64,000 nt of DNA from Candidatus Poribacteria bacterium (GCA_965220325.1 OZ244821.1:1331820-1395819); one strand, 5' to 3'. Counted from the stretch's first letter, positions 29,258 to 60,448 are shown. The notes: generated by a model not told the origin, from the letters alone. Numbers and translations are program-made.

Positions 29258-29295
29258 GTTTCTATCAAACCTAAAAAAATAAGGTGCGCGAACCT

Positions 29296-34300: not shown

Positions 34301-36228
34301 CGGCTGGTGTAAACATCGGTAACCCTGTGGTTGCTAGAGATAAGGATAACGACAAATTGACATACATCCTCGGTGGTATAGATGCAGTGTCCTTCAGCAT
34401 CGTCAGCACCACCGGACAATTGCAAACGCGGGCACCACTGGATTATGAACAGAAGAACGCCTATTCGGTAGTAGTTACCGCCTCCGATGGAATGCTCACG
34501 GATACCATCAATGTGGCTATCAATGTTACCGATGTCAACGAGAACAACGCACCCGTTTTCGCCAGCAGTAGCACAACGCGAACTATCGCGGAAAACACAC
34601 CGGCTGGCAGAAACATCGGCAGCCCTATCACCGCTACGGATGCGGATGGTGATCCTCTGACATATACACTCGGCGGTCCAGATGCAGCAACCTTCAGCAT
34701 CATCAGCACCACCGGACAGTTGCAAACGCGGGCACCGCTGGATTATGAAACGAAGAAGGCTTATGCGGTAACGGTCACCGTCTCTGATGGTAAGGGTGGC
34801 ACAGACATCATCAGCGTGACTATCAATGTCACTGACTTAAACGAAGCGCCGCCGACTGTAGAGGAAGCGCCAGTGACGGTAAACGAAACGCCAGTGACGG
34901 TAAACGAAACGCCGCCGACTGTGGATGTCCCCCCACAACCCGCGCAGATACAGAGCGCCGTCAGCATTAGTGAAATTATGTATGCTGCAGAATCCCGATT
35001 CACACCGCAGCAATGGATAGAATTACACAATGCCAGTTCAGATATAATCAGTCTCAACGGATGGACAGTGACCATCCAAAACAAAAATACATCAGATTTG
35101 ACCGACCCAGAGAATGTGAATGTGACATTCACTTTTGAGGATGATTTCTGGGGGGATGCCCCCACGCTTTGGCCAAATGAGACTGTCCTGATTGTTTCAT
35201 CAGACGTGAGTGATCACGAACACAATACCGACCTTCGTGAAAACCAATTTTACGATCTACGGTGGCGGACAGATTTACCCTTTAGTTTGTGGGACACAAT
35301 GCTGAGTGTAGAAGCATTCTCTATAAAACTGATGGATGGTGATGGAAATTTGGTAGACGAGGCTGGAAACTTTGATGGAAATATTCAACTATGGAAATTT
35401 AATCTGGGGCATAGAGGTAAGACCAAAGATGAATTCCGTAGTTCCGTGATACGCCGTTATCGCGATGGAATCGCACTGGATGGCACCCTAAAAGATAGCT
35501 GGATTCCTGCTGTGTTCGCGAATTTAACAGAAGATCAACTCACCTATGTTGGGGCGGAGACTGACATCAGCACCCCTGGTATCGGGATCGTCATCAACGA
35601 CATCTCTCAACGGAACACAGCATACGATGTTAACAAGGATGGAGTCGTTGATGTCTCCGATCTGGTAATTGTTGCCGGACGGGTCGGTCAATCCGGGCCC
35701 AATATCGCAGACGTTAACGGTGATGGCGTTGTCAATATCCAAGATTTGATACTCGTGGCGGGGGCAATCAGTGAAGCACAAGCGGCACCCTCACTGTATC
35801 CCGCATCACTCGCAATGTTTACCGCTGCCGATATTCGCGGGTGGCTGACCGAAGCACACGGATTAGATTTCAGGGATCCGAAACTCCAAAGCGGCATCCA
35901 CTTCTTAGAACAACTCCTGTTAGTCTTAGTCCCGAAAGAGACAGAACTGCTGCCGAACTATCCAAATCCGTTCAACCCGGAAACGTGGATACCGTATCGG
36001 TTGGCGGAAGATGCTTTCGTCGCGGTGACGATCTACGATCAACGCGGGCGTGTCGTCCGTAGACTCAACGTCGGATACCGGATCGTCGCAGCTTACGAGA
36101 GCCGGTCAAAAGCGATCTATTGGGACGGCAGAAACGAGGTCGGCGACAAGGTCGCCAGTGGAATTTATTTCTACACCCTCACCGCAGGCGACTATTCCGC
36201 CACACGAAAGATGCTAATCGTCAAGTAA
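31375..36228 (+). CDS. Giant surface protein (1617 aa): LRR, 8 cadherin repeats, lamin-tail domain, dockerin-like pair, T9SS-type C-terminal domain
   Basis: Signal peptide. LRRs (LxxLxLxxNxLSSLPAxxFSGL). Eight ~100-aa units (APVFVEG..T.R...ENTPAG.NIG.PV.A.D.DED.LTY.L.G.DA..F.I...TGQLQTR.PLDYE). LTD (SISEIMYA...QQWIELHNAS). Dockerin-like pair: DVNKDGVVDVSDLVIV...DVNGDGVVNIQDLILV. Tail: NYPNPFNPETWIPY...GIYFYTLTAGDYSATRKMLIVK. Confidence 0.85.
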   Translation: MKMLILNRKIMLSIVTAMLLIYGIQGTNYAQAQNNAHELTPVGDRTQQIRDMIVALVPGVDSANDVTAAHLALITRLNLSDQKITALKSGDFDGLSALRSLSLAKNALSSLPADIFSGLSAMDSLDLGSNELSSLPAEIFSGLSAMNRLNLAYNNLDNLSANTFSEMSSLTGLDLGNNELSSLPAGLFSGLPSLNWLSLSSNQLSSLPDGLFSGLPSLNSLYLSDNTINLSITVSLEKVSGNQFKAIAPTGAPFNMVLPIAVTNGSIADGVTTITIPAGSAQSGPLTVIPIPGTTAHVTANIGTLPELPTSHYGYSLVKPSSDDNTLSFALGFPKPTGDSNVNHAPIFTEGSSTTRSIAENTPAGKNIGSPVTATDEDEDVLTYSLSGADAVSFSIVSTTGQLQTHAPLDYEEKNTYAVTVTVSDGSATDTISVTIDVTDVNENNAPVFVEGSNTTRSIAENTPAGTKIGSPVTARDADEDTLTYTLGGTDAASFGIVSTTGQLQTRDPLDYEQKNTYAVTVHVSDGNGGTDTIAVAINVTDVNENNAPVFVEGNSTTRAVAENTPAGKNIGSPVTATDEDEDVLTYSLSGKDAASFGIVSTTGQLQTRDPLDYEQKNTYAVTVTVSDGNGGTDTIAVAINVTDVNENNAPVFVEGSSTTRAVAENTPAGTNIGSPVTATDEDEDTLTYALGGTDAVDFGIVSATGQLRTRAPLDYEQKNVYSVAVIVSDGNGGTDTIGVAINVTDIDETPTAHAPVFVEGSATERSIPENTPAGKNIGGPVIATDEDEEDVLTYSLSGVDAPSFGIVSNIGQLQTRAPLDYEQKNAYSVVVTVSDGTLTDTISVAINVTDVAENRAPVFVEGSSTTRTIAENTPAGENIGSPVAARDADEDTLTYTLGGTDAASFGIVSTTGQLQTRDPLDYEEENTYAVTVIASDGNGGIDTIAVAINVTDVNENRAPVFVAGLTKRSVSENTPAGVNIGNPVVARDKDNDKLTYILGGIDAVSFSIVSTTGQLQTRAPLDYEQKNAYSVVVTASDGMLTDTINVAINVTDVNENNAPVFASSSTTRTIAENTPAGRNIGSPITATDADGDPLTYTLGGPDAATFSIISTTGQLQTRAPLDYETKKAYAVTVTVSDGKGGTDIISVTINVTDLNEAPPTVEEAPVTVNETPVTVNETPPTVDVPPQPAQIQSAVSISEIMYAAESRFTPQQWIELHNASSDIISLNGWTVTIQNKNTSDLTDPENVNVTFTFEDDFWGDAPTLWPNETVLIVSSDVSDHEHNTDLRENQFYDLRWRTDLPFSLWDTMLSVEAFSIKLMDGDGNLVDEAGNFDGNIQLWKFNLGHRGKTKDEFRSSVIRRYRDGIALDGTLKDSWIPAVFANLTEDQLTYVGAETDISTPGIGIVINDISQRNTAYDVNKDGVVDVSDLVIVAGRVGQSGPNIADVNGDGVVNIQDLILVAGAISEAQAAPSLYPASLAMFTAADIRGWLTEAHGLDFRDPKLQSGIHFLEQLLLVLVPKETELLPNYPNPFNPETWIPYRLAEDAFVAVTIYDQRGRVVRRLNVGYRIVAAYESRSKAIYWDGRNEVGDKVASGIYFYTLTAGDYSATRKMLIVK
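32401..34846 (+). repeat. Tandem array of 8 cadherin-repeat coding units (~300 bp each)
   Basis: Units delimited by the recurring ...DVNEN(N/R)APVF(V)EG... junctions. Long near-identical nucleotide runs occur between units. Confidence 0.85.
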
Positions 36229-36426: not shown

Positions 36427-39400
36427 GTGGCCGTGCAAATTATAAAACTGACAATTTCCTTTTTGATATGTATGCTACTTGGATTGACCCCTCGCGCCAT
36501 GAGTCGAGATGCAGTACCGGGACAACGGTCAGGGACACTTGAAGATCCGTCAACAGTAAACCCAACGCCCCGAGACAAAACACTGAAGCGGATGAGCGTT
36601 TTATACGGAACCAATGAAAACGCGAATACAAGCATTCCGCCACCTCTGATGCAGCAGCTATACCCAAACGGTGACTTTCTCGCGACAGAACACTCCCAAT
36701 TTATCGTAACTTACGACGGTTTTACAGATGAAGCCATGGCAGCATTCCAATATGCAGTCGATATTTGGAACTCGTTCATCCGATCGCCTGTGCCAATCCG
36801 GATTGACGCATCTTTCACGGACTTGGGCGGTTTTGACGGTACCGCTATTATTTTAGGCGGCGCGCGCCCGGCAGACTGGCAATCACCCAGATCCTTGGGT
36901 TTGTGGTTCCCAGAAGCACTCGCGGATAAGAGAGCCGATAGAGACATCGCAGCGGGTGAACCCGATATCATCACAAGATTCAACAGTCACGAAGACGCAA
37001 ATTGGTACTTTGGCACGGATGGAAATACACCAGCAGGAAAACAGGACTTCGTTAGTACTGTACTTCATGAGATCGCTCACGGCCTTGGGTTTACCAGTTT
37101 TGCTACCGTCCGGACATTTTCCGCGTCTGTTGGTCAAGGGAAACTTAGGGATGGCGATCCCAGGTTACCCCAGATTTACGATTTTTTTGTAGAAAACGGC
37201 TCTGGAAAAACTATTATGTCTCTAACGGACCCGTCTGTTGACCTTGAAAACCAACTCACGAGCAATGACCTCTTCTGGAATGGAAAAAGAGGCGTTGCAG
37301 CAAACAGTGGTATTCTCCCACATCTCTACACCCCCAGTTCATGGGCAGAAGGTTCAAGCTACGTCCACTTGAATGAAATGACTTTTCCGGTCGGCGATGC
37401 GAACTCCCTAATGACCCCATACCTTGACAACCAGGAAGCGATTCACGACCCTGGCCCCATCGCACTCGGCATGCTTGAAGATATGGGATGGATAATCAAT
37501 AAAGCCCCCGTGTTCACCGACGGTTCGAGTACCGACCGTACAGTGGTGAACGGAAGTGTTGGAAGACCAGTGGCGGCGACAGATGCTAACAACGATCCGC
37601 TCACCTATTATCTAAACCGAAATCCAGAGGCAGCAGCTTTTGATATTGATAACATCACCGGACAACTGAAAACCAAGGTAGCGCATACCTACAACAAGGC
37701 ATCTTATACCGTAACTGTCGCTGTTTCCGATGGCACCTTGATGGATGAAATCACTGTCACCATCCATATCACCAGCACAGCAACTGAAACGCCTCCGAAT
37801 AGCAGACCGAACTTCGTGGATGGCAATCACACCCGTCGCACCATAGCAGAGAATACAGCGAAAGGCGTAGATATCGGCAAACCCGTCGCAGCGACGGATG
37901 CAGACAACGATGCTCTCACCTACACCCTCAGCGGTCCCGACGCGGCAGCTTTTGACATTGATAGCACCACCGGACAACTGAAAACCAGTGCCGAGCTGGA
38001 TTATGAAACCAAGAACACCTACACCGTAACGGTTACCGTCTCCGATAGCGATCTCGCGATTACCATCACCGTCATTATCATTATCATCAATCTGGACGAT
38101 CAGAAAAGTCCAACGCTAATGTTAACTTCACAACCGCTAACGGAAGCAACGCTAAACGGAAGCGTTGTGACACTGACTTTGAACAACCGAATCTATGAAA
38201 ACTGGCTCAGTGATCCCGTAACAGTGTCTGGTATTCCCGGTGTAACCGTTAGACCGTTTGATGTCCTTCGTCTGAGCGATACAGGGTTGTCAGTCCAACT
38301 GACATTTTACGGAACATCCCTCAATACGGATACCACCCTTACCCTCACAGTAAAAGCGGATGCCATTGAGAACTATGAGGGTCCTGCACTGATCGCAACA
38401 GCACGCGTCACGGCGAATGCGGAATCGGTGGCCGCATCAACGATAACACCCTTAACAGAAGCCACACTTAATGGAAGTGTTGTCACATTAACGTTAAACG
38501 GTGGTATTTATGAATCTCAGTATACTGTCGGCAACAGTGTGACGGTATCCGGTATTTCCGGTGTCACTGTTAACGTCTATAATGTGGAACGCCTCAGTGG
38601 GACGCAGGTGAATGTTGAACTCATATTTGACGGGACCGACTTTGATACGGATGCCACGCTGACCTTCACAGTCGGAACGAATGCCATAGTAGAATACAAG
38701 GGTACGGCACTCACCGCACAATTACGCGTTAGTGCCGTAATAGAGGAGATCCCAATAGTAACGGCTTATGCGACACACCCCTTGACAGAGGCAACCCTTG
38801 ATGAGCGTATCGTCACACTCACCCTATCAAGCGGCGTGTATACACACTCCAGTGCTGACATTAGCAGCGCAGTGCAAGTATCGGGTGTTGCAGGTGTTAC
38901 GTTTCGCCGGTCCGATGTCGTACGCGTCAGTGATACAAAAGTAACCGTTCAACTGACATTCAAAGGTCCGGACTTTGATACGGATGCCATGCTGACCTTC
39001 ACAGTCGGATCGGATGCTATCGTGAACTACCATGGTTCCGCACGCATCACGAGGCTACCTATCATCGCTGTGGTCGAAGAAAGACCTACAATAACGGCTT
39101 ATGCGACACACCCCTTGACGGAGGCAACCCTCAATGGCAGCGTTATCCGGTTAACACTTAATAATGGAACTTACGTACGATCTAACTTCGATATTGAAGA
39201 TGCTGTGACAGTATCCGGTATTGCAGGCGTTACCGTTGGATTCTTCGGGGTGGAACGCGTGAGCAACACAATAATTACCTTTGAACTGGAATTCAATGGT
39301 AACCTTGACACTAATACCACACTCACTTTCATAGTGGGCGCGGATGCTATTGCCGAATACGAGGGTCCCGCACGCATCGCGCAGCTACCTGTTACCGGTG

Positions 39401-40332
39401 GACAGGAATCGATCGTCGCATCAACTGAGGCTCCCTTGACAGAAACAACACTAAATGGTAGTATCGTTACATTCACGCTCAACGGTGCCATTTACGAGCA
39501 ATCTACCTTTGATCTCAGGGACGCTGTTGAGGTATCTGGCATTGAGGGGGTCACTTTTCATTGGTTTGATTTGGACCGCGTCAGTGATACGGAACTAACG
39601 GTTGCATTGACATTCAGAGGCAACATTGACACGGATACCATCCTCACTTTTACAGTGGGCGCGGATGCTATTGCCGAATACGAAGGGCCCGCACGCATCG
39701 CACAAATAATTGTCGCTGGTAGCAAAGAGTCGGTTGCTATTTCAACAGAAGCACCGTTGGTGGAAGCGACGCTGGACGGTAGCCTCGTCACATTGACACT
39801 CAGCGGACGCATTTATGAACGATCCTATTTCAGACTCAGAGAAGCTGTCTTAGTCTCCGGTATTGACGGCGTGACCGTAGACGATATAGATCGTATCAGC
39901 GACGCAAAGATTACCCTTGAACTGGCATTCAATGGGGATTTTGATACCGACACCACACTCACCTTTACTGTCGGTGCAGATGCATTATTGAGATATAGCG
40001 GACCCGCCCTCACAGCGCAACTCCCTGTCATCGCAGATAGAGAGAACGCACTTTTGACAAACTTCCCGAATCCGTTCAACCCGGAAACGTGGATACCCTA
40101 TCAACTCGCAAAACCCGCAGATGTTAGCATCTCCATCCATGCTATAGACGGCAAGTTGGTACGCGCTTTGGATTTAGGACATCAACCCGCAGGGAGGTAT
40201 CACAACCGTAGCCGTGCAGCGTATTGGGACAGTAAAAACGCATTCGGCGAACCTGTCGCAAGCGGCGTATATTTCTATACCATCACAGCAGGCGACTTCA
40301 CCGCTACACGCAAAATGTTAATACGCAAATAG
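36427..40332 (+). CDS. Surface protein (1301 aa): metzincin-like Zn-protease head, 2 cadherin repeats, 6 novel ~100-aa modules, T9SS-type C-terminal domain
   Basis: GTG start. Signal-like N-terminus. Zinc motif VLHEIAHGLGF (37066..37080 encodes HEIAH) with a downstream SLMTPY Met-turn-like motif. Cadherin units (APVFTDG..., PNFVDG...). Six PLTEATLNGS... modules. Tail: NFPNPFNPETWIPY...YFYTITAGDFTATRKMLIRK. Confidence 0.8.
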   Translation: MAVQIIKLTISFLICMLLGLTPRAMSRDAVPGQRSGTLEDPSTVNPTPRDKTLKRMSVLYGTNENANTSIPPPLMQQLYPNGDFLATEHSQFIVTYDGFTDEAMAAFQYAVDIWNSFIRSPVPIRIDASFTDLGGFDGTAIILGGARPADWQSPRSLGLWFPEALADKRADRDIAAGEPDIITRFNSHEDANWYFGTDGNTPAGKQDFVSTVLHEIAHGLGFTSFATVRTFSASVGQGKLRDGDPRLPQIYDFFVENGSGKTIMSLTDPSVDLENQLTSNDLFWNGKRGVAANSGILPHLYTPSSWAEGSSYVHLNEMTFPVGDANSLMTPYLDNQEAIHDPGPIALGMLEDMGWIINKAPVFTDGSSTDRTVVNGSVGRPVAATDANNDPLTYYLNRNPEAAAFDIDNITGQLKTKVAHTYNKASYTVTVAVSDGTLMDEITVTIHITSTATETPPNSRPNFVDGNHTRRTIAENTAKGVDIGKPVAATDADNDALTYTLSGPDAAAFDIDSTTGQLKTSAELDYETKNTYTVTVTVSDSDLAITITVIIIIINLDDQKSPTLMLTSQPLTEATLNGSVVTLTLNNRIYENWLSDPVTVSGIPGVTVRPFDVLRLSDTGLSVQLTFYGTSLNTDTTLTLTVKADAIENYEGPALIATARVTANAESVAASTITPLTEATLNGSVVTLTLNGGIYESQYTVGNSVTVSGISGVTVNVYNVERLSGTQVNVELIFDGTDFDTDATLTFTVGTNAIVEYKGTALTAQLRVSAVIEEIPIVTAYATHPLTEATLDERIVTLTLSSGVYTHSSADISSAVQVSGVAGVTFRRSDVVRVSDTKVTVQLTFKGPDFDTDAMLTFTVGSDAIVNYHGSARITRLPIIAVVEERPTITAYATHPLTEATLNGSVIRLTLNNGTYVRSNFDIEDAVTVSGIAGVTVGFFGVERVSNTIITFELEFNGNLDTNTTLTFIVGADAIAEYEGPARIAQLPVTGGQESIVASTEAPLTETTLNGSIVTFTLNGAIYEQSTFDLRDAVEVSGIEGVTFHWFDLDRVSDTELTVALTFRGNIDTDTILTFTVGADAIAEYEGPARIAQIIVAGSKESVAISTEAPLVEATLDGSLVTLTLSGRIYERSYFRLREAVLVSGIDGVTVDDIDRISDAKITLELAFNGDFDTDTTLTFTVGADALLRYSGPALTAQLPVIADRENALLTNFPNPFNPETWIPYQLAKPADVSISIHAIDGKLVRALDLGHQPAGRYHNRSRAAYWDSKNAFGEPVASGVYFYTITAGDFTATRKMLIRK
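38127..40035 (+). repeat. Array of 6 copies of the unrecognised ~100-aa module (coding)
   Basis: Each unit reads ...PLTEATL(N/D)GS(V/I)VTLTL(N/S)G..Y.......(A)V.VSGI.GVT......R(V/L)S.T...V.L.F.G...TD..LTFTVG.DAI..Y.G.A....L.V.A. Confidence 0.85.
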
Positions 40333-40388: not shown

Positions 40389-42722
40389 ATGAAAACCCTA
40401 ATCATGAAGCAGAAATACCTTGTGTCCATATTAGTTACCATCTTCACAATCTTGGGAATACAAAGCAGTTACGCACAGACGATAACCGCTTCAACGCCAC
40501 ACCCCTTGACAGAGGCAAACCTACACGAAAGTGTAGTCACCCTCACGCTCAGCGGGCGTAGTTTTACTGGGTGGTCATCAGACATCGGAGAGGCAATGAC
40601 GATATCCGGCATTGACGGTGTCACTTTTGATAATTATTGGGATGTGGATCGTATAAGCGACACAAAAGTGACCGTAGAACTCACATTCTCTGGCAATATT
40701 GATGCAGACACACCGCTTGTCTTTACCGTAGGAGCAGGGGGAATAGCTAACTATGATGGTGAGGCACTCACCGCACAACTCCCTGTGACTGCTGTTGAAG
40801 AGTCGTTAGTCCCAACAACAGAAGCACCTTTGACAGAGACAACGCTTAGCGGCAGCCTTGTGACACTCACACTCAGTGGCCGTAGTTTCGCGAGTTGGGA
40901 ATCTTCCATTCAATCGGCTCTGACAATATCCGGTGCTGAGGGTGTCACTTTTGATTCGTGGGACGTGAATCGTATAAGCGACACAAAAGTGACCGTAGAA
41001 CTCACATTCTCTGGCAATATTGATGCAGACACGCCGCTTATCTTTACGGTAGGAGCAGGGGGAATAGCTGACTATGATGGTGATGCACTCACCGCACAAA
41101 TACCTGTCACAGCTGTAGCGGAGACACTTGTCGCAACAACAGAAACGCCTCTGACAGAGACAACGCTTAGCGGAAGTGTCGTAACCCTTACACTCAGCGG
41201 GCGGCATTTTACAGATGAATGGGACATTGAGCGTGCGTTGACTATATCCGGTATTGAAGGCGTGACCATACACGATGTTGATCGCAACAGTAATATGGAG
41301 GCAACTGTTGATATAAGGTTCTCCGGCAACATAGACATAGATGCGACACTCATTATCACCGTGGGGGCGGGCGCAATAGTGAACTACAATGAGGCGTTCA
41401 CTGTTCAAGTTCCTGTCACAGCTGTAGAGGAGACGTTAATCGCAACTACGACGGCACCTCTAACAGAGGCAACGCTGAGTAGTAGTGTTGTGACACTCAC
41501 ACTCAACGGGCGTGTTTTCAACACCTCTGGCACTGTGTCTGTATCTGGCATTGATGGTGTAACCATAAGTAGGATCAGCCGCGTCAGTAACACACAGATG
41601 ACGGTGTCACTTACTTTCTCCGGGAATATTGACGCGGATAGCACGCTTACAATCACCGTAAGTGCAGCCCGTATAGCCGGCTACAATGATGCATTCACTG
41701 TCCAACTCCCTGTCACAGCTGTTGAAGAGTCGTTAGTCGCAACAATAGAGGCACCCTTGACAGAGACAACACTTAGCGGCAGCGTTGTGAAACTCACGCT
41801 CAGTGGACGGTCTTTTGTTGCTCACTCTTCCAACATTGCACGTGCTTCGTCAATATCTGGCATTGAAGGCGTAACAGGTAGCTTCAGACGCGTAAGTAAT
41901 ACAGAGGCTAAAATTACATTGGGTTTCTCCGAGAACATAGACGCAGATAGTACACTCACAATCACCGTAGGTGCGGATGCGATAGTAGGCTACAACGAGG
42001 CGTTCACTGTCCAGTTACCTGTTACGGCAGTAGTGGAGACGCTTGTCGCAACAACAGAAGCACCTTTGACAGAGACAACACTTAGCGGAAGTGTAGTAAC
42101 GCTTACGCTCAGCGGGCGGTCTTTCAATGATAGATACGATGTCTATAATGCTCTGACGGTCTCCGGCATTGAAGGCGCATCATTTTACAAGTTTGGTGTA
42201 GATCGCATAAGTAATACGAAGGTAACCGTGCCACTGACATTCTTTGGTAACATAGACGCAGATAGTACACTCACTCTCACCGTGGGAGCAAATGCTATCG
42301 TAGGCTACAACGAGGCGTTCACTCTTCAACTCCCTGTCACAGCAGTAGCGGAGTCATTAGTCGCAACTACGGAAGCACCTTTGACAGAGACAACACTTAG
42401 CGGCAGCGTTGTAACACTCACACTCAACGGGCGGTCTTTCGATTCGTCACGTCATGACATTGAGCGTGCGCTAACTATTTCCGGTATTGAAGGTGTCACG
42501 GTTTATAGGGCAAACCGCGTGAGCGATACCAAAGTGACAGTTGTGTTGATTTCTACCGAAGATTTTGATACAGATAGTGTGCTGACTCTCACCGTCGGTG
42601 CGGATGCTATTGTAGGCTACAATCAAGAATTTTCCTTTGAATTCCCTGTGACTGGTGTAGAAGAGTCGCTTATTGCAACAACAGAAACCCCTTTGACAGA
42701 AGCGAACCTTACGGGTGTGTAA
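40389..42722 (+). CDS. 5' part of an IS-disrupted surface-protein gene (signal peptide plus 7.2 copies of the ~100-aa module)
   Basis: The reading frame runs into the left IS end and stops at a TAA inside the inverted repeat (42720..42722). As it stands, the product lacks the cohesin/dockerin region and the T9SS-type tail. Confidence 0.8.
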   Translation: MKTLIMKQKYLVSILVTIFTILGIQSSYAQTITASTPHPLTEANLHESVVTLTLSGRSFTGWSSDIGEAMTISGIDGVTFDNYWDVDRISDTKVTVELTFSGNIDADTPLVFTVGAGGIANYDGEALTAQLPVTAVEESLVPTTEAPLTETTLSGSLVTLTLSGRSFASWESSIQSALTISGAEGVTFDSWDVNRISDTKVTVELTFSGNIDADTPLIFTVGAGGIADYDGDALTAQIPVTAVAETLVATTETPLTETTLSGSVVTLTLSGRHFTDEWDIERALTISGIEGVTIHDVDRNSNMEATVDIRFSGNIDIDATLIITVGAGAIVNYNEAFTVQVPVTAVEETLIATTTAPLTEATLSSSVVTLTLNGRVFNTSGTVSVSGIDGVTISRISRVSNTQMTVSLTFSGNIDADSTLTITVSAARIAGYNDAFTVQLPVTAVEESLVATIEAPLTETTLSGSVVKLTLSGRSFVAHSSNIARASSISGIEGVTGSFRRVSNTEAKITLGFSENIDADSTLTITVGADAIVGYNEAFTVQLPVTAVVETLVATTEAPLTETTLSGSVVTLTLSGRSFNDRYDVYNALTVSGIEGASFYKFGVDRISNTKVTVPLTFFGNIDADSTLTLTVGANAIVGYNEAFTLQLPVTAVAESLVATTEAPLTETTLSGSVVTLTLNGRSFDSSRHDIERALTISGIEGVTVYRANRVSDTKVTVVLISTEDFDTDSVLTLTVGADAIVGYNQEFSFEFPVTGVEESLIATTETPLTEANLTGV

Positions 42723-44152
42723 AGTTTTTGGCAGCGTATTTTTGAAGATATGAGTTGAAGTTTGTCAATAAAAATGGTATCCTCTCGCAAAGATGATAAA
42801 GTTGAGTATCGTAAGGAGAAGATACCATGTCTAACATTGTAGCAGAAATTCAGCAAGAAATGGAAGATATTTTTCAAGAGTTAAGTGATACCGAGGACGT
42901 TTCGGTTTCGACCGTAGAGGCGCGTGTGTCTAAGGCTGCCGATTCTTGGGCACAAAGGTTATCCGAGTCGGTTCTATCAGAGACAGCGAGTTGTAAGGAG
43001 ACATCGCCTGTGAGTGTTGCGTGTCCATCTTGTCAAGGGCATAGTCATAGGTATCGGTGCCGGGCGCGCAACTTCACGACGGTTTGTGGTGTTCTGCGTA
43101 TCTCAAGATGGGCGTATAAATGTCAATGTGGTTATATTCATGTGCCTTGGGAGGCTAAGCAAGGGTTGAAAGGACGGTATACACAGGCGGTTGCCAAAGC
43201 GATGATGCGTGTCGCTGCACAGTTGAACTATCGTGCGGCGGCGGCGGAGTTGAAGCATCAAGGCATTGAAGTGAGTCATACGACGCTGCATCAGAAGGTT
43301 CAGGAGTGGTCAGCAGGCGAAGTTATCTCTGATTATGTGGCATCGGAATGCTTGGAGTCTGATGCGCGTTGGTATGTCAGTTTTGATGGGTGCCACACGA
43401 ACTCACCTGTCGGTTGGCAGGAGGTGAAAGTCGGGTGCATCGGTAAAGATTATCCGCACCAGAACGCGACCTCGGTGATGAAAATCCGTCCACCGAGTCT
43501 CCGTTATATCGCTTCTCGGAGTTGTGCGTCGGATTTCGGAGAGCAGTTGTCTGCGTTAGCGACACAGACCGGTATTTATCAAGACGAAAAAACGATAGAC
43601 ACCGAAGAAGTCGTTGTTATCGGTGATGGGGCAGTGTGGATATGGAACTTGGCAGATGAACACTTCCCGGGTGCCACCGAAATCGTTGACTTTATGCATG
43701 CCAAGAAACATTTACATGATGTTGCCAAACTTGCTTTCGGCGAAGATGACTCAGACCGTGTAGAGACTTGGGTGCGGACAACCGAGACCCCCCTTTACAA
43801 TGGAGAGACATCGCAAGTCGTCGCACGCATACGAGAGTTGGCAACAGAAAACCCAGCGATAGGAGATGTCCTCGAAAAAGAAGTCCGCTATTTTCAAAAA
43901 AATGCTCATCGCATGCAATATCGGACGTTCAACGAAAAAGGCTATCAGATCGGCAGTGGTGTCATTGAGAGTGCTTGTAAACACGTCGTCGCTGAACGCT
44001 GTAAACAAGCAGGCATGCGATGGAGCACACCCGGGATAAATGCCATACTCTTTTGGCGATGTTTGCTAAAGAATGACGCAGCAGATACTTATTGGGATAC
44101 ACAAACTATGCCAAACGCAGCATAAATACGCTGCCAAAAACTTTACACACCC
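42713..44152 (+). mobile_element. Insertion sequence, 1440 bp, single DDE-type transposase (ISKra4/ISLre2-like)
   Basis: Perfect 29-bp terminal inverted repeats: GGGTGTGTAAAGTTTTTGGCAGCGTATTT at 42713..42741, and its reverse complement at 44124..44152. Flanked by a 9-bp direct repeat GAACCTTAC (42704..42712 and 44153..44161). Confidence 0.9.
42827..44125 (+). CDS. IS transposase (432 aa; ISKra4/ISLre2-like, family assignment tentative)
   Basis: N-terminal Cys-rich segment (CPSCQGHSHRYRC...CQCG). Motifs VIGDGAVWIWN, DFMHAKKHL and YQIGSGVIESACKHVV..RCKQAGMRWS. SD AAGGAG. The stop lies inside the right inverted repeat. Confidence 0.8.
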   Translation: MSNIVAEIQQEMEDIFQELSDTEDVSVSTVEARVSKAADSWAQRLSESVLSETASCKETSPVSVACPSCQGHSHRYRCRARNFTTVCGVLRISRWAYKCQCGYIHVPWEAKQGLKGRYTQAVAKAMMRVAAQLNYRAAAAELKHQGIEVSHTTLHQKVQEWSAGEVISDYVASECLESDARWYVSFDGCHTNSPVGWQEVKVGCIGKDYPHQNATSVMKIRPPSLRYIASRSCASDFGEQLSALATQTGIYQDEKTIDTEEVVVIGDGAVWIWNLADEHFPGATEIVDFMHAKKHLHDVAKLAFGEDDSDRVETWVRTTETPLYNGETSQVVARIRELATENPAIGDVLEKEVRYFQKNAHRMQYRTFNEKGYQIGSGVIESACKHVVAERCKQAGMRWSTPGINAILFWRCLLKNDAADTYWDTQTMPNAA

Positions 44153-46115
44153 GAACCTTACTGGCAGCGTGGTGACACTCACGCTCAGCGGGCGGCATTT
44201 TACAGACGAATGGGACATTGAGCGTGCTTTGACGTTCTCTGGTATTGAGGGTGTTTCTATTCCAAGCTACGACGGTGTAGAACGTGTAAGTAACACGGAA
44301 GCAAAGGTTACCTTGTCATACTCTGGCAATATAGACACAGATAGCACGTTTACTTTGGAAGTAGGCGCGGGTGCTATAACCAGCTACAATGAAGGATTTA
44401 CCTTTGAATTTCCCGTCACTGCTGTTGAAGAGAGGTTGGAAATCTCAACAGAATCTCCTTTGACAGAAGCAGCACTGAATGGTGGCACTATCACACTCAA
44501 GCTCATCGGACGTCAATTCACATGGTGGCGACAGGATATTGAAGAGGCAGTGACATTAACTGGCATTGAAGGTCTGAGCATCGGCAGATTCAGTGTTGAT
44601 CGTGAAACTGGAGATGTGGTGCTAATTCCGCTTGTCTTTAATGGCAATATAGACACAGATGCTACACTTACCATTGAGGTCGGAGCAGGTGCAATCGCAG
44701 GCTATAACGAAGCATTCACCACACAAATACCTGTTACGTCGGTAGAGGAGTCACTGGATATATCATCTAAGTTTAACTTGAATGAGGCAACGCTTAACGG
44801 AACTGAAGTTATATTAAAACTGAATGGTCGTTCTTATGTGTCGTCATTCTCTGACATCCGCAATGAAGTGTCAGTTACTGGTATTGAAGGTGTCACTTTC
44901 GATGATTTCTTTGATGTGGACCGTGTCAATGACAATGAGGTGGTGGTTGAACTGAGTTTTGACGGAACAGATTTTGATATTGACAGCACGCTCACCTTTA
45001 CTGTCGGTGCAGAGGCAATTTCTGGTTACGGCGAAGCATTGACTGCCCAACTTCCGGTTACTGCGATAAAGCAATCCAACGGGACAATCAGCATCTCGCC
45101 GAACCCGGTCGTATCTCCACCACTTTTTGAACAGTTGACTGTCAGTCTAAATATTACAAGCGGGGAGAATGTTGCTGGGTTTCAAGCTATCGTTTGGTAT
45201 GATGATGACACACTCAGATATGTGGAAAGTGCTAAAGGCAATTATCTGCCAGCGGATGCGTTCTTTGTGGCCCCAACTGTTCCAGAGTATGAATATTATC
45301 CGTATCCTTATGTGCCAATTGCTACAACCGCTCTTGACGGCGTAAGTAATGGTAACGGCACACTCGCCACCGTCACCTTTGAAGTTTATGATGATATTAA
45401 AGAATCTGAGATAACCTTGACGAATGTCTACATTGTAGACCGTGAGGGTATTCGGTGGGAAGTTGAGATTGAAGGCACTGATGTGACTGAACCGGCGCAC
45501 GATGTCGTTGGAGATATTAACCGTGATGGTCTGGTGAACATCCGCGATTTAGTGCTTGTGAGTTGGCGTTTTGGTTTACGTGACGAAAATCGCGCGGATA
45601 TTAACGGAGACGGCATTGTTGATATAGCTGACCTTGTGCTCGTTGCAAATGCGTTGGGTGCGGATGCAGCTGCGCCATCCTTAAATCCACAGATATTGGA
45701 ACAGCTCACCGCCGCAGATGTGAAAGAATGGCTAACCCAAGCGCAGAAAATCACACTGACCGACCCCGATTATAAGCGCGGAATTAGTGTGCTGGAGCAA
45801 CTCCATAAGGCGCTGACCCCTAAAACGACAGCACTCTTGCCAAACTTCCCTAATCCGTTCAACCCGGAAACGTGGATACCCTACCACTTATCAAAAGATG
45901 CGGATGTCACACTGCACATCTATGCTGTGAACGGCATATTGGTGCGAACGCTGGTACTTGGGCATCAAGCTGCAGGTCGGTATCAAAGTCGTTCCCGTGC
46001 GGCATATTGGGATGGCAGAAACGAACGCGGTGAACCCGTCGCAAGCGGTGTTTACTTCTACACACTCACGGCAGGCGATTTCACTGCTACACGTAAGATG
46101 TTGATACGCAAGTAG
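44153..46115 (+). pseudogene. 3' part of the IS-disrupted gene: 2.8 modules, cohesin-like domain, dockerin-like pair, T9SS-type C-terminal domain
   Basis: Removing 42713..44161 rejoins ...PLTEANLT|GSVVTLTLSGRHF... in frame, giving a ~1425-aa protein with 10 modules. The 27 N-terminal codons of the 44073 track ORF are IS sequence. Confidence 0.8.
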
Positions 46116-47670: not shown

Positions 47671-50600
47671 ATGATGAACCGATTAGATGACAACGATCCT
47701 CCGATTATGCTTGAAAGTGTAGGATTCAAGGGCAAACGCTCGTCCATCGTTCTAGTTGTATGTCTTTTATTTTTATTTTCTCTCTTCGTAATTACGAGTT
47801 GCGGTCCACTGGTAACCACCGATCCGCAATCTGGCATTCCGCTTAAGGATTCTGATACAAACTCGCGTCCTAAAAAGATGTGGCCCGTGAAACGGACGCT
47901 CGTCAGCAACGAAGTCAACTGTATTGCAGCAGATTCGGAGAACGTATGGATTGCAACAGCACACGGGATTTCGCGTTGGGAACGCACCGAAGATAAATGG
48001 CTGCACTACACGATGGAAGACGGACTGGCGAACGATATGGTGAACGCCGTTGCGATTGATGGGCAGTGGGTCTGGTTCGCTACGGATGAAGGCGTGAGTC
48101 GCTACGATATACAAACGGATACCTTTGCGACCTTCCGAACTATTGACGGCTTAGCGAGCGACCAGGTCTCCTCTATTGCTATTGATGGAAATTACGTCTG
48201 GTTCGGAACGTCTAATGGACTCAACCGCTATGACAAAACAATTGACAGTTGGGCGGTACGTACCCGGAAAGACGGGTTGGTCAGCAAAATAATTACAACC
48301 ATCGCTGTTGAGCCGGAGTACGTCTGGGTCGGCACCGATAGGGAAATCAACCCCGATCCGCATGGATGGGATCGGGATCCGAGGTTCAGCAAAGGCGGTG
48401 TGAGCCGCTACCATCGAGATACGGATTCATGGAATAATTATACAAAATCAGATGGTTTGATAGGCAGCGAAATCGCTACTATTGCCGTGGACGATGACAG
48501 CGTTTGGTTTGGGACAGAAAAAGAAGGGGTCAGTCAATACAATCAGGTCGATCAGACCTTCATTAAGACGTATACGAAAACCGACCTGTTGAAAAGCAAT
48601 ATGATGACCTGTATCCGTACAGATGGCTTCCAAGTCTGGTTCGGGACCGCCAACGCCGGTGTACACCGATTTATCAAACCCGTCAATACCTGGGTGCATT
48701 ACACCAAAGCAGACGGACTGTCAAGCAATCATGTGAGTTGGATTACCACACACGGTAATGATGTCTGGTTTGCGAGTAAAGAGGATGGGGTGAGCCGCTT
48801 TGATAAAGTAACCGGTGAATGGATAATTTACAAACAAGCCGATTTTCTTGCAGATAACGATGTCCGAGCGATAACACGTGATACCGATGGGAACCTCTGG
48901 ATGGCAACAGTCGGCGGAATCTCGGTTTACGTGCCTCAAACGCGGAGTTGGGAAATTATATCCAAAGAAGATGGACTGCCAACGCCATACATCACGTCAA
49001 TACTTATTAGCCAGAATAGTCAACAGCCATCAGGTAAAAAGGCTGGTCAGTTAAGAGATGGATCCACTGAACCAGATTCCTCTTTGCTGATAGCCGACAA
49101 CCGACAGCAGACAGCCATTTGGATCGGCAGCGATCGAGGGCTTGGTACAGCTACAGATATAAGCACCGAATGGACTTTTCATACGCCGCGAAATAGCAAT
49201 CGGCAGTCAGCAGACAGCAGACAGCAAGAGGCTGTCGGAGCATCGAAAACATCTTCGCCGACAGCAGACAGCAGACAGTTTCCGACAGCCATTCACAGCG
49301 AAGCGTTTGTGACCGCCCTTGATACCGATGCGGCACGCGCAAACTCTGTTATCTGGCTCGGTACCAGTTTAGGACCCGCCATGTATGATCCAATATCTCA
49401 AAAATGGACCCAGCTTGACGTGCCGGATGCCCCCAAAGATCCGCTTATATTATCTGTGCTTGTTCACGATGGGAGTGTTTGGTTCGGGGGTGCTGAGGGG
49501 GTTTGGCGATATTTGATCGCCGATAAGCAGATGCACCCTGCTATCGATGGGCTTCCCGACCTGTATGTTAATGTCCTCTTCTCCACGGGTGAAAAAGGGA
49601 AAGAGGAGACACTTTGGGCAGGAACACGCCGTGGGCTTGCCAGGTATGACATCAACCGCCAGCGTTGGGTCCCGTTATCCTTTAACGCACAATTACCCTC
49701 CCCCAATGTTACTGCGCTCGCTTTTCGAGATGGCACGCTCTGGATTGGCACACCACAAGGTCTCGGAAGCTACACGATTGTTTCCGATTCTTGGAATTCG
49801 CTCTCAAACGTACCGTATAACATTCGCGACATACTGTGTGCGGAAACCGATGAAATACTTTGGCTAGCGACGGACATCGGTCTCGTTGAATATCATAGCC
49901 GTGAAAAAACCGAAAACGTAGTCCGTAATGTAATGAAGGACGGGTCCACGGAGAAGCACTTGAAAACACTGGGGAAACACCCCAGCAAAAACACCCGCCT
50001 CACCGAACCGCAAGGTACTATAAAAATACATCAATCCCGTCCCGTGCGGGAACCGTTCTTTGAGACCAGAGTCTCACACATCAAATTTGATGGCGCTTAC
50101 ATCTGGTTTAATAATTGGAGAGCTTCGCCGAACGGTAGTATCGTGCGTTTTCATCGCCCAACAGCAACGTGGCGACGTTTCACGCGTTTAGATATTCTGC
50201 AATCCACGCAGAAGAGATCCATGACCTTTATCCGTTGGACCTACGTCGATACTAATGCCGTCTGGTTCACCACGGACTACGGTGTTCTCCGTTATAATAA
50301 AACTACGGATACGTGGCAGCATTTTACGACAGAAGATGGACTCTCTACAGACGATGTGGATAAAATTGCTGTCAGTGAGCAGAGCGTCTGGGTTATTCCG
50401 ATGATAGGTTTGGAATTAAACCGTTATGATAAAGCAACTGGAACGTGGGAAGTGGTAGAAGAAGAGGGGCACCGTGAGATTGAGACTATAAAATCACTCG
50501 GGGTTGATGGCCCGAACGTCTGGTTCGCGTCTGGGCGCGGACTCACGCGTTACAATGAGGTCACCGGTGAATGGAAAAATTTCGGACCCAGGGACGGATT

Positions 50601-52146
50601 GGCAGGTAGAGGCGCCGAATGGATTACTGTGGATGACGATTTTATTTGGGTTGCGCGTTCGGAATGGGACAGAGGCAGCAACCGTCCATTATCCCGATAC
50701 GATAAGAAAACAAAAAAGTGGACAACTTTCTCAACGAATGACGTACTTGCTGCTAGGACCATTAGACGCATTATCGCTACAGAGAACGATGTCTGGATAC
50801 TCTACAGACCCTGGGATGACGCCGGTGTCACCCGATACGATCGGCGTACAAAAGAGTGGACGACAATCCGCTCTGGCCGCGGAACGCTCGAACTCGCAGC
50901 CGATGACGATTATCTCTGGTTAGCTGCACCCAACGAAGGGCTTCGACGATTTCATTTTGCCTCCGGCACCTGGACAACGTTTAAAGATATCGAGGGGCTG
51001 CTCCATAATCACGTCGGTGAGTACGGGCTTGCAGTCGATCAAGACTATGTATGGGTCGGAACCTTACGAGGGCTTTCGCGTTATGACAAGCGGAAGGAAT
51101 CCTGGACACCTCTGACATCACTGCCAACCCTTTTGGGACGCACCATCCGGACGGTAGATACAGATGAACGTTTCGTCTGGATCGGTTCCGATAAAGGGAT
51201 GTCCCGCTACGACAAGGTTTTAGGTACCTGGAAAAATTATCGACAGAAGGGTGGGTCTGAAAACATAGAAACCCACGGCGGTCATTGGCACCGACATGGC
51301 AGGAAAAAGAGGGACTCCCTCTCCGATAACGTTGTGAGTTCTATCGTTGTTGATGAACAATACGTCTGGATCGGGACACGCGATGGCGCGAACCGTTTTG
51401 ATAAGATAGCATTGCGGTGGGACCAATACAAAACTGAGCATGGGTTGCCTGCGAATAATATAACTTCTGTTAGTAGCGATGGCAGTAGCATCTGGGTGGG
51501 AACTAATTCCGGGATTGGGAAGTATCCGCGCACAGCGGATGACCTCAACGCATGGATTACTTACACATCTGGCACTGAAATCCAACCGTCTGCCGTATCT
51601 AAAGAGTTCGCAGAATCATTGGTTACCGATCAAATCTGGTGTATCACGGCGAGTAAGAGACACGTCTGGGTCGGCACACGCCGCGGGGTGAGCAAATACG
51701 ATGTGGGTAAAGACATCTGGAAAACAATCACAGTGGAAGATGGACTCGCAAGCGATGAAGTCAGTTGTATCGCTATCGATGGCGATCGCGTCTGGTTTGG
51801 CAGTGATCGTGGTGTAACGCTCTATAATGAAAAGGCAGACGTTTGGGCTGCCTATACAACAGAAGATGGACTCGCAAGCAACAAGGTTACCACCATCGGT
51901 GTTGATGGCACAGAAGTCTGGATCGGTACTTACAATGCCGGGGTCAGCCGGTTCGATCAGTTGACGAATACCTGGACAACTTACACACGAGATGATGGTT
52001 TGGCACATAATGGTATCCTTTCCATGGCTATTGATAGTAACTATGTCTGGTTCGGCACCTATCGCGGGTTGAGCCGCTTCGATAAACGCACAGGCATCTG
52101 GACGGTCTTCACAGAGGTCTATGGACCAGAAGACATTTTGAGGTAG
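47671..52146 (+). CDS. Membrane-anchored/lipoprotein giant (1491 aa) made almost entirely of two-component-regulator propeller (Reg_prop) repeats
   Basis: N-terminal hydrophobic segment ending ...FVITSCG. More than 25 repeats of the pattern V..IA.D...VW(F/I/V)(G/A)T..G(L/V)SRYD....W..YT..DGL. No kinase, HTH or other output domain. Confidence 0.75.
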   Translation: MMNRLDDNDPPIMLESVGFKGKRSSIVLVVCLLFLFSLFVITSCGPLVTTDPQSGIPLKDSDTNSRPKKMWPVKRTLVSNEVNCIAADSENVWIATAHGISRWERTEDKWLHYTMEDGLANDMVNAVAIDGQWVWFATDEGVSRYDIQTDTFATFRTIDGLASDQVSSIAIDGNYVWFGTSNGLNRYDKTIDSWAVRTRKDGLVSKIITTIAVEPEYVWVGTDREINPDPHGWDRDPRFSKGGVSRYHRDTDSWNNYTKSDGLIGSEIATIAVDDDSVWFGTEKEGVSQYNQVDQTFIKTYTKTDLLKSNMMTCIRTDGFQVWFGTANAGVHRFIKPVNTWVHYTKADGLSSNHVSWITTHGNDVWFASKEDGVSRFDKVTGEWIIYKQADFLADNDVRAITRDTDGNLWMATVGGISVYVPQTRSWEIISKEDGLPTPYITSILISQNSQQPSGKKAGQLRDGSTEPDSSLLIADNRQQTAIWIGSDRGLGTATDISTEWTFHTPRNSNRQSADSRQQEAVGASKTSSPTADSRQFPTAIHSEAFVTALDTDAARANSVIWLGTSLGPAMYDPISQKWTQLDVPDAPKDPLILSVLVHDGSVWFGGAEGVWRYLIADKQMHPAIDGLPDLYVNVLFSTGEKGKEETLWAGTRRGLARYDINRQRWVPLSFNAQLPSPNVTALAFRDGTLWIGTPQGLGSYTIVSDSWNSLSNVPYNIRDILCAETDEILWLATDIGLVEYHSREKTENVVRNVMKDGSTEKHLKTLGKHPSKNTRLTEPQGTIKIHQSRPVREPFFETRVSHIKFDGAYIWFNNWRASPNGSIVRFHRPTATWRRFTRLDILQSTQKRSMTFIRWTYVDTNAVWFTTDYGVLRYNKTTDTWQHFTTEDGLSTDDVDKIAVSEQSVWVIPMIGLELNRYDKATGTWEVVEEEGHREIETIKSLGVDGPNVWFASGRGLTRYNEVTGEWKNFGPRDGLAGRGAEWITVDDDFIWVARSEWDRGSNRPLSRYDKKTKKWTTFSTNDVLAARTIRRIIATENDVWILYRPWDDAGVTRYDRRTKEWTTIRSGRGTLELAADDDYLWLAAPNEGLRRFHFASGTWTTFKDIEGLLHNHVGEYGLAVDQDYVWVGTLRGLSRYDKRKESWTPLTSLPTLLGRTIRTVDTDERFVWIGSDKGMSRYDKVLGTWKNYRQKGGSENIETHGGHWHRHGRKKRDSLSDNVVSSIVVDEQYVWIGTRDGANRFDKIALRWDQYKTEHGLPANNITSVSSDGSSIWVGTNSGIGKYPRTADDLNAWITYTSGTEIQPSAVSKEFAESLVTDQIWCITASKRHVWVGTRRGVSKYDVGKDIWKTITVEDGLASDEVSCIAIDGDRVWFGSDRGVTLYNEKADVWAAYTTEDGLASNKVTTIGVDGTEVWIGTYNAGVSRFDQLTNTWTTYTRDDGLAHNGILSMAIDSNYVWFGTYRGLSRFDKRTGIWTVFTEVYGPEDILR

Positions 52147-54335: not shown

Positions 54336-54722
54336 ATGAAAACCAAAAGATTACACCCATTAGAACTTGAAGTGATGAAAGTGGTATGGAAACTGACGCG
54401 TGCCACGGTCAACGATGTCCTTGATAATATTAACCGTAAGCTCGCCTATACTACTGTCGCTACAACGATGAAAAGTCTCGAAAAGAAGGGTTTTTTGTCG
54501 CATCAAGTGGATGGTAGGACGTTCGTTTACCAGCCTTTGGTCAAAGAGGCAGAGATTACGCATTCCATGCTCAGCGATTTACTGGAACGCCTTTTTGACA
54601 ACTCTGCCGAAAAACTGGTGAACACACTCCTTGAAGTGCGACAAACCAGCGCAGATGAACACAATCGCTTACAAGCGTTGATTAACAACTACCAGCCTGA
54701 AGGAGAAGAAACCGATGACTAA
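54336..54722 (+). CDS. BlaI/MecI/CopY family transcriptional repressor
   Basis: Winged-helix N-terminus: LHPLELEVMKVVWKLTRATVNDVLDNINRKLAYTTVATTMKSLEKKGFLSHQVDGRTFVYQP. Overlaps the next gene by 8 nt. Confidence 0.85.
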   Translation: MKTKRLHPLELEVMKVVWKLTRATVNDVLDNINRKLAYTTVATTMKSLEKKGFLSHQVDGRTFVYQPLVKEAEITHSMLSDLLERLFDNSAEKLVNTLLEVRQTSADEHNRLQALINNYQPEGEETDD

Positions 54723-57262: not shown

Positions 57263-57421
57263 TCAAACCCTGAAGAAACGCCCAAGCAAAAACCCTGCAG
57301 TGGGCTGCGTAAGTCCTGTTATTGCGTTTTTTGGATAGAATTATGCACCCGTTCCATCCATAAGTAGCGTCACCAGAAATGAAAGCACAATTATGCAACC
57401 ATCTATTTGTGGAGACGACCA

Positions 57422-60400: not shown

Positions 60401-60448
60401 GATTGGAACGAAGTGCTCAAAAACTCGACTGTACAGGAAAAAGAGTGA
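57422..60448 (+). CDS. ECF sigma factor fused via one TM helix to a large extracytoplasmic WD40 repeat region
   Basis: Sigma70 region 2 (HIAEEITQDTFLKAYKRL...WLYVIAANRCSSWLRKK) and region 4 (IMTLHYFGEMSCTEIGTFLGVSKNTIKSRLRRAQQRLKK). TM helix WAVAASTVAVVLLMLGI. About 14 WD40-type repeats (FSPDG..LASGS.D.T(V/I)(R/H)(L/F)W(D/N)). ATG at 57422 with GGAG upstream. Confidence 0.8.
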   Translation: MKNNDAELIQRVLEGDDDAFTVLVRKYQKQVHALAWRKIGDFHIAEEITQDTFLKAYKRLSTLKKPQRFASWLYVIAANRCSSWLRKKRLWTQPLENLEETDDKQLQQSTYSGYVAAENERTTVEAQRDVVKRLLAKLQESERTIMTLHYFGEMSCTEIGTFLGVSKNTIKSRLRRAQQRLKKEEPMIREALENFQITPNLTESIMQEIARIKPAAPSGSKPFMPWAVAASTVAVVLLMLGIGNQQHALRFQKPYNLDAASEMTVELIEAPVVLNVVSKPDTRTQIGSTNTPGKSSKSERPPDDAPALVAEAHADELVDDYTKWHLPKEAKARFGKGGINVLQFSPDGTQIAVGSSIGVWLYDLNTGKEITMFPGMCESIAFSPDGQFIASGGGKYTFHAGFRLWEIATSQKVALIDGPPAVSALQFSEDGETLLGLGNWGDSISKLNVETGEGNVKNIEDRSWEKIPRRSMPEPYALTDDKFAVGGENGKIQLWGTTIGEQLSTLSGHGEDLKNPLIEKLQEMIQGQPPVPEGNNHVLVLEFSPDGTKLASGSKDKTVRLWNTTTGNELAILRKHTGWTNVLAFSPNGERLASGGTDKTVHLWDTDTGKLITTLNKHLSSIAALSFSPDGRTLASGSADGTIRFWNTETGDLLPLNITEHTEWVKAASFVKDSSTLASIAFNGVITFWDLQTSQKTDVQMTGHRDFLPALAFSSDGIKLANVSAKATMFFDQSSGISTWSADHLVRLTDVTTGRELGTLNETNAGVNPGASMTFSPDKKTVAFGEQGKIHLWNTETGASFEIPLVDKHNADGNDELAPPPDMMMLLPVPQIGALVFSPDGKKLVSGTMGGKVQMWDAETGVELAPFFDDETKKEPGKLKATVSYQDGITALAFSPNGALLAVGSYKRIRLLGSHKQSRLKEVPHGVETLVFSPDSTMFVTGLRNGGIELWDLPTGDKLTILDGHSEPVGTLVFSPDGKTLVSTGQDGTILVWDWNEVLKNSTVQEKE

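Follow-up and report, generated by a model that had tools for sequence, protein, structure and literature searches.

A cohesin-dockerin cassette ahead of a type IX secretion sorting domain on repeat proteins of Candidatus Poribacteria

Introduction

What might cohesin and dockerin modules be doing on bacterial proteins whose passengers are not glycoside hydrolases? The question is raised by a stretch of 64,000 nucleotides from a Candidatus Poribacteria bacterium (GCA_965220325.1, OZ244821.1:1331820-1395819), called here the window, in which a run of large + strand open reading frames (ORFs) spans 26-46 kb. One of these genes, gene E, is split by an insertion sequence (IS), and its 3' fragment (44153..46115, + strand) encodes the remainder of an array of immunoglobulin (Ig)-like repeats followed by a C-terminal cassette of cohesin, dockerin, linker and sorting domain. 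A preliminary description of the locus had recognised the modules of gene E, had noticed a second dockerin on a neighbouring 1617-residue protein (gene C), and had proposed from the two a non-cellulolytic adhesin assembly anchored through a type IX secretion system (T9SS). For the eukaryote-like repeat proteins found in sponge symbionts, a role in recognition of the host or in avoiding phagocytosis is widely assumed, and the public runs that contain the present sequence are sponge-associated. We consider it moderately probable, as a joint reading, that the modules form a genuine C-terminal cassette and that proteins bearing it are cross-linked to one another at the cell surface by calcium-dependent pairing of cohesin with dockerin.

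Results

The cohesin, dockerin and tail modules

The cohesin module of gene E (45078..45494, + strand) was identified with Pfam, with a family profile compared against the PDB, and with an AlphaFold2 model searched by Foldseek. In an isolated segment of 201 residues the Pfam cohesin model PF00963 scores 26.5 bits (cut-off 24.1), and in the whole 680-residue ORF it scores 22.4 bits (E 1.5e-4, residues 355-457), below that cut-off. The borderline score is immaterial because the Pfam matches of the relatives, the family profile and the AlphaFold2 and Foldseek results agree. PF00963 is matched by 48 of the 50 aligned relatives, and the dockerin model PF00404 by all 50. The family profile matches the solved cohesin 3l8q (E 2.8e-9) and the Clostridium perfringens NagJ cohesin 2ozn (E 3.8e-5); the cohesin segment used as a single-sequence query against PDB sequences found nothing significant, the best cohesin having an E of 0.6. 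The AlphaFold2 model of the cohesin-dockerin segment has a predicted local distance difference test score (pLDDT) of 89.2 and a predicted template modelling score (pTM) of 0.81, and contains nine main strands in its cohesin part; model, Foldseek and family profile all place the module among the nine-stranded, jelly-roll beta-sandwiches to which cohesins belong. Every one of the top 50 Foldseek matches in the PDB is a cohesin, the first being 2xdh, which comes from Archaeoglobus fulgidus and is not cellulosomal (E 1.5e-10, template modelling score 0.81 normalised on the target), and the NagJ cohesin is again matched (E 1.1e-8). In line with the preliminary description, 45078..45494 encodes a genuine cohesin, of the non-cellulosomal kind.

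The dockerin of gene E (45504..45659, + strand) consists of two F-hand calcium loops, DINRDGLVNIRD and DINGDGIVDIAD, 28 residues apart and each followed by a helix. Dockerin_1 (PF00404, cut-off 22.9) scores 29.2 bits in the 680-residue ORF (residues 480-528) and 30.5 bits in the isolated segment, and it scores 28.2 bits at residues 1417-1463 of the 1617-residue product of gene C. The Pfam assignments stand for the dockerins of both proteins and for the cohesin as an isolated segment, and fall just short for the cohesin within the whole ORF. Among solved dockerins, 2y3n_B is matched by the family profile (E 6.4e-10); compared with it, the spacer between the two repeats is about 5 residues shorter. 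All four loops of genes E and C (DINRDGLVNIRD, DINGDGIVDIAD, DVNKDGVVDVSD and DVNGDGVVNIQD) have the ligand pattern D, N, D, D/N, D, and 97-100% of 192 dockerins of the family retain the ligands at positions 1, 3, 5, 9 and 12 in both loops. Strong conservation extends beyond the loops over both dockerin helices, which occupy residues 156-164 and 184-198 of the AlphaFold2 model. Dockerins adjacent to a cohesin (n=148) and dockerins without an adjacent cohesin (n=44) have a consensus that is near-identical at essentially every position. Genes E and C each carry a genuine two-loop dockerin that is predicted to bind calcium. The peptides quoted in the preliminary description lie in frame and within the intervals given there, for gene E (45085..45660) at 45135-45248, 45351-45395, 45510-45560 and 45597-45644, and for the gene C dockerin (35623..35772) at 35626-35673 and 35710-35757. 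The whole 64-kb window, examined by a six-frame motif scan and by our own hidden Markov models (HMMs), contains one cohesin and two dockerins. Chance resemblance to a cohesin or dockerin was considered and is ruled out by the Pfam, profile and Foldseek scores.

The dockerin of gene E leads into a conserved linker of about 55 residues (45666..45824, + strand; HMM and alignment), for which no Pfam or PDB relative was found and which was called helical by sequence inspection alone. At the C-terminus of the protein stands a FlgD_ig-like sorting domain of T9SS type A that includes the motif NPFNPETWIPY (45828..46112, + strand). TIGR04183 (NCBIfam, cut-off 23) scores 28.1 bits in gene E and 29.6 bits in gene C, in both cases reaching the last residues; FlgD_ig scores 37.4 bits in gene E, and Pfam PF18962, at 17.2 and 25.8 bits in genes E and C, stays below its cut-off of 27. 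Over the last 200 residues, which take in dockerin, linker and tail, the two proteins are 57% identical in a gap-free alignment, and the common C-terminal arrangement claimed for them is borne out. A Sec-type signal peptide, with a hydrophobic core followed by SYAQ or NYAQ, can be read from the sequence of gene C and of gene E once restored. The tail motif NPFNPETWIPY is nearly restricted to Poribacteria in a motif scan of a genome collection, and Kamke et al. 2014 (PMC3909097) had noted eukaryote-like proteins of Poribacteria that carry a Por-type sorting domain at the C-terminus. None of the T9SS machinery components SprA/Sov, PorV, PorU, PorZ and GldKLMN is encoded within the 64-kb window. 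A 1491-residue Reg_prop beta-propeller protein at 47671..52146 scores 73 bits with the PorZ model, against a cut-off of 260, and 42.5 bits with PorZ_N_b_propeller; no sorting domain was detected in it with our own HMM.

Occurrence of the cassette in Poribacteria

How widely does the cassette occur? Relatives are encoded by at least 374 stretches, and the best 80 of these loci all lie in metagenome-assembled genomes of Candidatus Poribacteria. In most of the 209 protein matches PF00963, PF00404 and PF13860 accompany passengers of the WD40, cadherin or repeat kind. Four module HMMs were built from the family alignment and used to scan the ORFs of the fetched loci. Among 79 loci picked by cohesin-dockerin similarity, the full order of cohesin, dockerin, linker and tail was found in 47 proteins and dockerin, linker and tail in 30, with a few proteins having two cohesins. 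A second sample was picked solely by the tail motif and comprises 145 poribacterial proteins whose upstream sequence was long enough: the tail stands alone in 37%, 38% have a dockerin without cohesin, and 25% have a cohesin. Dockerins are about 2.5 times as numerous as cohesins. Spacers of fixed length, 1-9 residues overall, connect the modules, with 1-3 residues between dockerin and linker and 1-2 between linker and tail.

Two further architectures occur among the same 79 loci. In nine poribacterial genomes an orthologous protein of 740-990 residues has an N-terminal cohesin, a middle region of about 500 residues and the tail, with no dockerin (loci L041, L045, L047, L048, L054, L060, L064, L069 and L049). 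In the example at L041:5884-8283, the N-terminal cohesin scores 52 bits and the middle region contains Spondin_N. This protein is a candidate for a free socket anchored to the surface. Proteins of about 1600 residues (L056:2575-7479, L051:6552-11366 and L044:6345-11231) are built of WD40 propeller, cohesin, WD40 propeller, cohesin and dockerin; no dockerin adjoins their internal cohesin, and no linker or sorting domain follows their dockerin. As candidate soluble adaptors, they would depend on a cohesin elsewhere for their retention on the cell.

The passengers identified in 19 scanned relatives include WD40 and leucine-rich repeat (LRR) regions, low-density lipoprotein (LDL)-receptor propellers, Laminin_G_3, NPCBM, Big_1, CARDB, Spondin_N and unidentified regions. 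Binding or repeat modules are the sole passengers in 18 of them, and one has an M36 metallopeptidase. Judged from these sequences, the cassette is modular and phylum-wide in Poribacteria, standing behind WD40, LRR, cadherin and Ig-like domains and LDL-receptor propellers, and rarely behind an enzyme. On the - strand at L099:2887-6924 there is a sorting-domain protein with dockerin-like and cohesin-like HMM matches together with a fungalysin-type M36 metallopeptidase, its propeptide and a PPC domain.

Interruption of gene E by an insertion sequence

The 5' fragment of gene E (40389..42712, + strand) encodes a Sec-type signal peptide, MKTLIMKQKYLVSILVTIFTILGIQSSYAQ, followed by seven or more copies of an Ig-like repeat of about 105 residues. 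It is separated from the 3' fragment by a 1440-bp insertion sequence of the ISKra4 family (42713..44152, + strand), which has perfect terminal inverted repeats of 29 bp, GGGTGTGTAAAGTTTTTGGCAGCGTATTT, and is flanked at 42704-42712 and 44153-44161 by the two copies of a 9-bp target duplication, GAACCTTAC. The transposase ORF (42827..44125, + strand) scores 233 bits with NCBIfam transpos_ISKra4 (cut-off 205). The empty site, with a single GAACCTTAC, is preserved in a contig of a 97%-identical strain (L080), which completes the set of features that identify an ISKra4-family insertion: transposase, inverted repeats, target duplication and empty site in a relative. The split gene of the preliminary description is accordingly a gene interrupted by this element. 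Removal of the IS and one copy of GAACCTTAC joins the fragments in frame, giving a 1425-residue ORF that has the Sec-type signal peptide and about 13 Ig-like repeats as passenger; an intact 1436-residue orthologue in the poribacterial genome OZ244563.1 is 74% identical from end to end, across the junction. The 680-residue ORF (44073..46115, + strand) starts from a non-native ATG at 44073, inside the IS, and the separated 3' fragment has no signal peptide.

In public runs, contigs are broken precisely at positions 42713 and 44152. In the source sample the IS is multi-copy, because its depth of about 380 is some nine-fold that of the flanks (41-45), and contigs that span both junctions at flank depth show the interrupted allele at full depth. 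The insertion into gene E is recent. Copies of the element with 95-99% identity and without gene E flanks occur in several other sponge metagenomes, and a full-length contig of 1440 nt was found in a sponge metatranscriptome; the element appears to be a poribacterial IS that is both active and widespread. The IS-free gene E at L080:4854-8861 reads as four consecutive ORFs, with one of the frame breaks falling in the cohesin at VPEYEYY. Sequencing errors, and not genuine decay, may account for these breaks, the contig being labelled with 3x coverage.

Neighbouring genes

Gene C (31375..36228, + strand) encodes a signal peptide, an LRR region, eight cadherin domains, a lamin-tail domain and the dockerin, linker and sorting domain, the last three placed by HMMs and alignment at 35620..35772, 35779..35940 and 35941..36225; no cohesin was found in it with Pfam or our own HMMs. 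With these passengers in gene C and the Ig-like repeats in gene E, the absence of glycoside hydrolases that had been noted for the window proteins is upheld. Gene A (26192..29257, + strand) has LRR, cadherin and the Ig-like repeat of gene E, and gene D (36427..40332, + strand) has cadherin and the same repeat; both run straight into the sorting domain and have neither cohesin nor dockerin. Gene B (29284..31050) encodes a Pro/Glu-rich repeat (PEEPQQ) and then a lamin-tail domain resembling that of gene C, right after which it ends, dockerin, linker and sorting domain all being absent; the gene could represent either a truncated paralogue or a soluble variant.

Copies of the repeat of about 105 residues lie at 40485..42671 and 44436..45074 in gene E, at 28337..28657 in gene A and at 38116..39735 in gene D. 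The repeat matches no Pfam family. Its model is a confident beta-sandwich (pLDDT 93.8) with weak Ig-like matches in Foldseek (best E 6e-3), among them the Ig-like domain of an L,D-transpeptidase, the SbsC S-layer protein and the invasin InvD. Because these matches are weak the repeat is left without a family assignment; it is possibly an undescribed stalk domain. Two large WD40 proteins adjoin the cluster (57407..60448 and 60570..62855) and have no cohesin, dockerin or sorting domain, unlike the many WD40 proteins of relatives that carry the full cassette. Elsewhere in the window, other eukaryote-like proteins are an M56 peptidase/sensor of the BlaR1 type with a lamin-tail domain fused to it (54715..57105) and a protein with LDL-receptor class B repeats (12919..14013).

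Discussion

How could a single cohesin and two dockerins, on proteins with binding-domain passengers, be put to use? In the assembly that we propose, the proteins would be exported by Sec and then delivered to the outer surface in a step that depends on the sorting domain. There the dockerins would serve as calcium-dependent plugs into the cohesin sockets of other surface proteins. Dockerin-only proteins, such as the product of gene C, would dock onto cohesin bearers, such as the product of an intact gene E, and proteins with both modules would chain head to tail. The outcome would be a cross-linked layer presenting binding domains instead of enzymes. The distribution of the modules, together with analogy to known systems, leads us to infer that dockerins plug into cohesins in trans and that cohesin-dockerin proteins can chain: partners in trans are called for because there are dockerins without any cohesin and cohesins without an adjacent dockerin, and binding between proteins is favoured because dockerin-only, dockerin-free-cohesin and two-cohesin proteins coexist in Poribacteria. 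Since there is one dockerin consensus, competition among the dockerins for shared sockets is to be expected. The domain calls are solid, and the assembly biology built on them is plausible.

The cassette could also be viewed as an intramolecular clasp, in which dockerin and cohesin within a single chain bind each other and the pair forms a rigid, calcium-stabilised stalk between passenger and anchor, without joining proteins at all. The linker between cohesin and dockerin is indeed very short and of fixed length, the pTM of the didomain is high, and a cohesin followed directly by a dockerin is the commonest cohesin context, accounting for 47 of the 79 cohesin-selected loci. Such a clasp would, however, leave without a partner the 38% of tail proteins that have only a dockerin, the N-terminal cohesins and the internal cohesins of the WD40 proteins, and it does not sit well with a consensus that is indistinguishable between dockerins with and dockerins without an adjacent cohesin; we regard it as unlikely. 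Less probable still is that both folds are real and do not pair, the dockerin being a calcium-dependent folding or stability element, or a binder of host or polysaccharide, and the cohesin an Ig-like spacer. Many non-cellulosomal dockerin-like modules are said, after the work of Peer and colleagues in 2009, to have no known partner, and the habitat of calcium-rich seawater and sponge mesohyl would suit a calcium-dependent fold. Against this stand the systematic co-occurrence of cohesin and dockerin within a single phylum, where they share a class of exported protein and a near-fixed arrangement, and the strong conservation of both dockerin helices rather than of the calcium loops alone.

We give very little credence to a cellulosome-like degradative complex, with enzymes arrayed on a scaffoldin for the breakdown of polysaccharide or protein. 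Neither window protein has a glycoside hydrolase or carbohydrate-binding module (CBM) in Pfam, a long tandem cohesin array occurs in none of the proteins examined, and 18 of the 19 scanned relatives carry nothing other than binding or repeat modules; these outweigh the M36 metallopeptidase at L099, the carbohydrate-binding NPCBM module of another relative and the few relatives with two cohesins. A cellulosome in the strict sense is rejected for the window proteins, which have a single cohesin and no glycoside hydrolases, CBMs or tandem cohesins.

Several points weigh against cross-linking between proteins or restrict what it can mean here. The two-domain pTM of 0.81 would imply a fixed mutual orientation, such a value being hard to reach otherwise when the dockerin makes up 27% of the residues, and the spacing is rigid, with 5 residues between the cohesin and the first dockerin Asp in 89 of 167 pairs. 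Short fixed spacers and a confident two-domain unit would fit a clasp as well, which keeps it a live alternative; the two are not exclusive, and a rigid didomain could still offer free faces. The term T9SS-anchored derives from the sorting domain only, anchoring at the surface being an assumption, and the incomplete poribacterial single-cell genomes of Kamke et al. 2014 (PMC3909097) contained no Por secretion structural genes. The census was made with home-made HMMs at E <= 1e-3, on stop-to-stop ORFs of a sample of loci whose size was capped. With an ATG that belongs to the IS and no signal peptide on the 3' fragment, the cohesin of gene E is probably not exported in this genome, and pairing between gene C and gene E is probably not operating in it; the IS-free joint was not seen in contigs of the source sample, from which rare variants may be hidden. 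Moreover, the cohesin-dockerin principle is already known, from non-cellulosomal pairs, from pairs on one polypeptide and from a scaffoldin anchored by a sorting domain.

Cross-linking through the cassette might be extended to a largely non-enzymatic, phylum-wide network, in which the rigid cassette polymerises head to tail and captures dockerin-only proteins in a calcium-dependent lattice that displays eukaryote-like domains of the WD40, LRR, cadherin and Ig-like types to the sponge. This extension is tentative, and we think it possible though rather doubtful. At the present locus the result is more modest, the copy of the cohesin gene there being disrupted by the IS. In the phylum at large, about two thirds of the sampled poribacterial tail proteins have a dockerin and a quarter have a cohesin, which makes display a testable idea that involves small, expressible modules. 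If it is true, cohesin-dockerin biology reaches into the display of binding domains in a Gram-negative, uncultured phylum, and there would be a missing link between the long-noted eukaryote-like proteins and their presentation to the sponge host. It also sharpens a question dating from 2014, namely which pathway handles the Por-type sorting domains in Poribacteria.

No relevant publication linking Poribacteria with dockerin, cohesin or type IX secretion was found in the searchable full-text literature, where the one paper that came up for dockerin concerns a salt lake and is unrelated, and the poribacterial cohesins and dockerins, the rigid cassette and its systematic link to eukaryote-like binding domains appear to be undescribed there. 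The parts themselves have counterparts elsewhere. The classical cellulosome of Clostridium thermocellum and its relatives shares both folds and the calcium-loop pattern of the dockerin, whereas the window has no multi-cohesin scaffoldin, CBM or glycoside hydrolase and has rigid short spacers in place of long flexible linkers. The toxin and glycosidase complexes of C. perfringens (NagJ cohesin, 2ozn/2jh2) also use non-cellulosomal cohesin-dockerin modules, but in a Gram-positive pathogen, with glycoside hydrolase passengers, with the modules on separate proteins and with no sorting domain. The best structural match, 2xdh of A. fulgidus, is likewise a non-cellulosomal cohesin; unlike the poribacterial module it is archaeal, only 18% identical, and without a sorting domain, and A. 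fulgidus has few such genes per genome, whereas in Poribacteria a large share of the exported repeat proteins is involved. The parent protein of 2xdh presumably carries a dockerin too. Surveys of cohesins and dockerins outside cellulosomes, among them cases with the two on a single polypeptide, reportedly go back to the 2009 study of Peer and colleagues.

Closest in phylum are the proteins of Kamke et al. 2014 (PMC3909097), which belong to the same WD40, LRR and cadherin class with TIGR04183; cohesin and dockerin are unmentioned in that work. In anchoring, the cassette is reminiscent of Ca. Stygibacter (Cloacimonadota), for which a cellulosome-like complex with a cohesin protein on a T9SS-type C-terminal domain has been predicted (Williams et al. 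2021, PMC8542988). Both are Gram-negative uncultured lineages that combine cohesin and dockerin proteins with a T9SS-type C-terminal domain. However, the Ca. Stygibacter scaffoldin is a protein of 3755 residues with tandem cohesins and CBMs, and its dockerins are on a chitinase, an amylase and peptidases, whereas the Poribacteria have single cohesins fused to a dockerin and mostly binding-domain passengers. A parallel in architecture is the amylosome protein Amy4 of Ruminococcus bromii, a single secreted polypeptide that likewise combines a cohesin with a dockerin at its C-terminus, and whose cohesin binds both the dockerin of its own polypeptide and the dockerins of others, for which multimerisation has been proposed (Ze et al. 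2015, PMC4611034). Amy4 differs in coming from a Firmicute, in its GH13 amylase passenger, in sortase-linked scaffoldin anchoring with no T9SS-type sorting domain, and in having no fixed short spacer. Its binding is experimental, whereas binding by the poribacterial modules is predicted.

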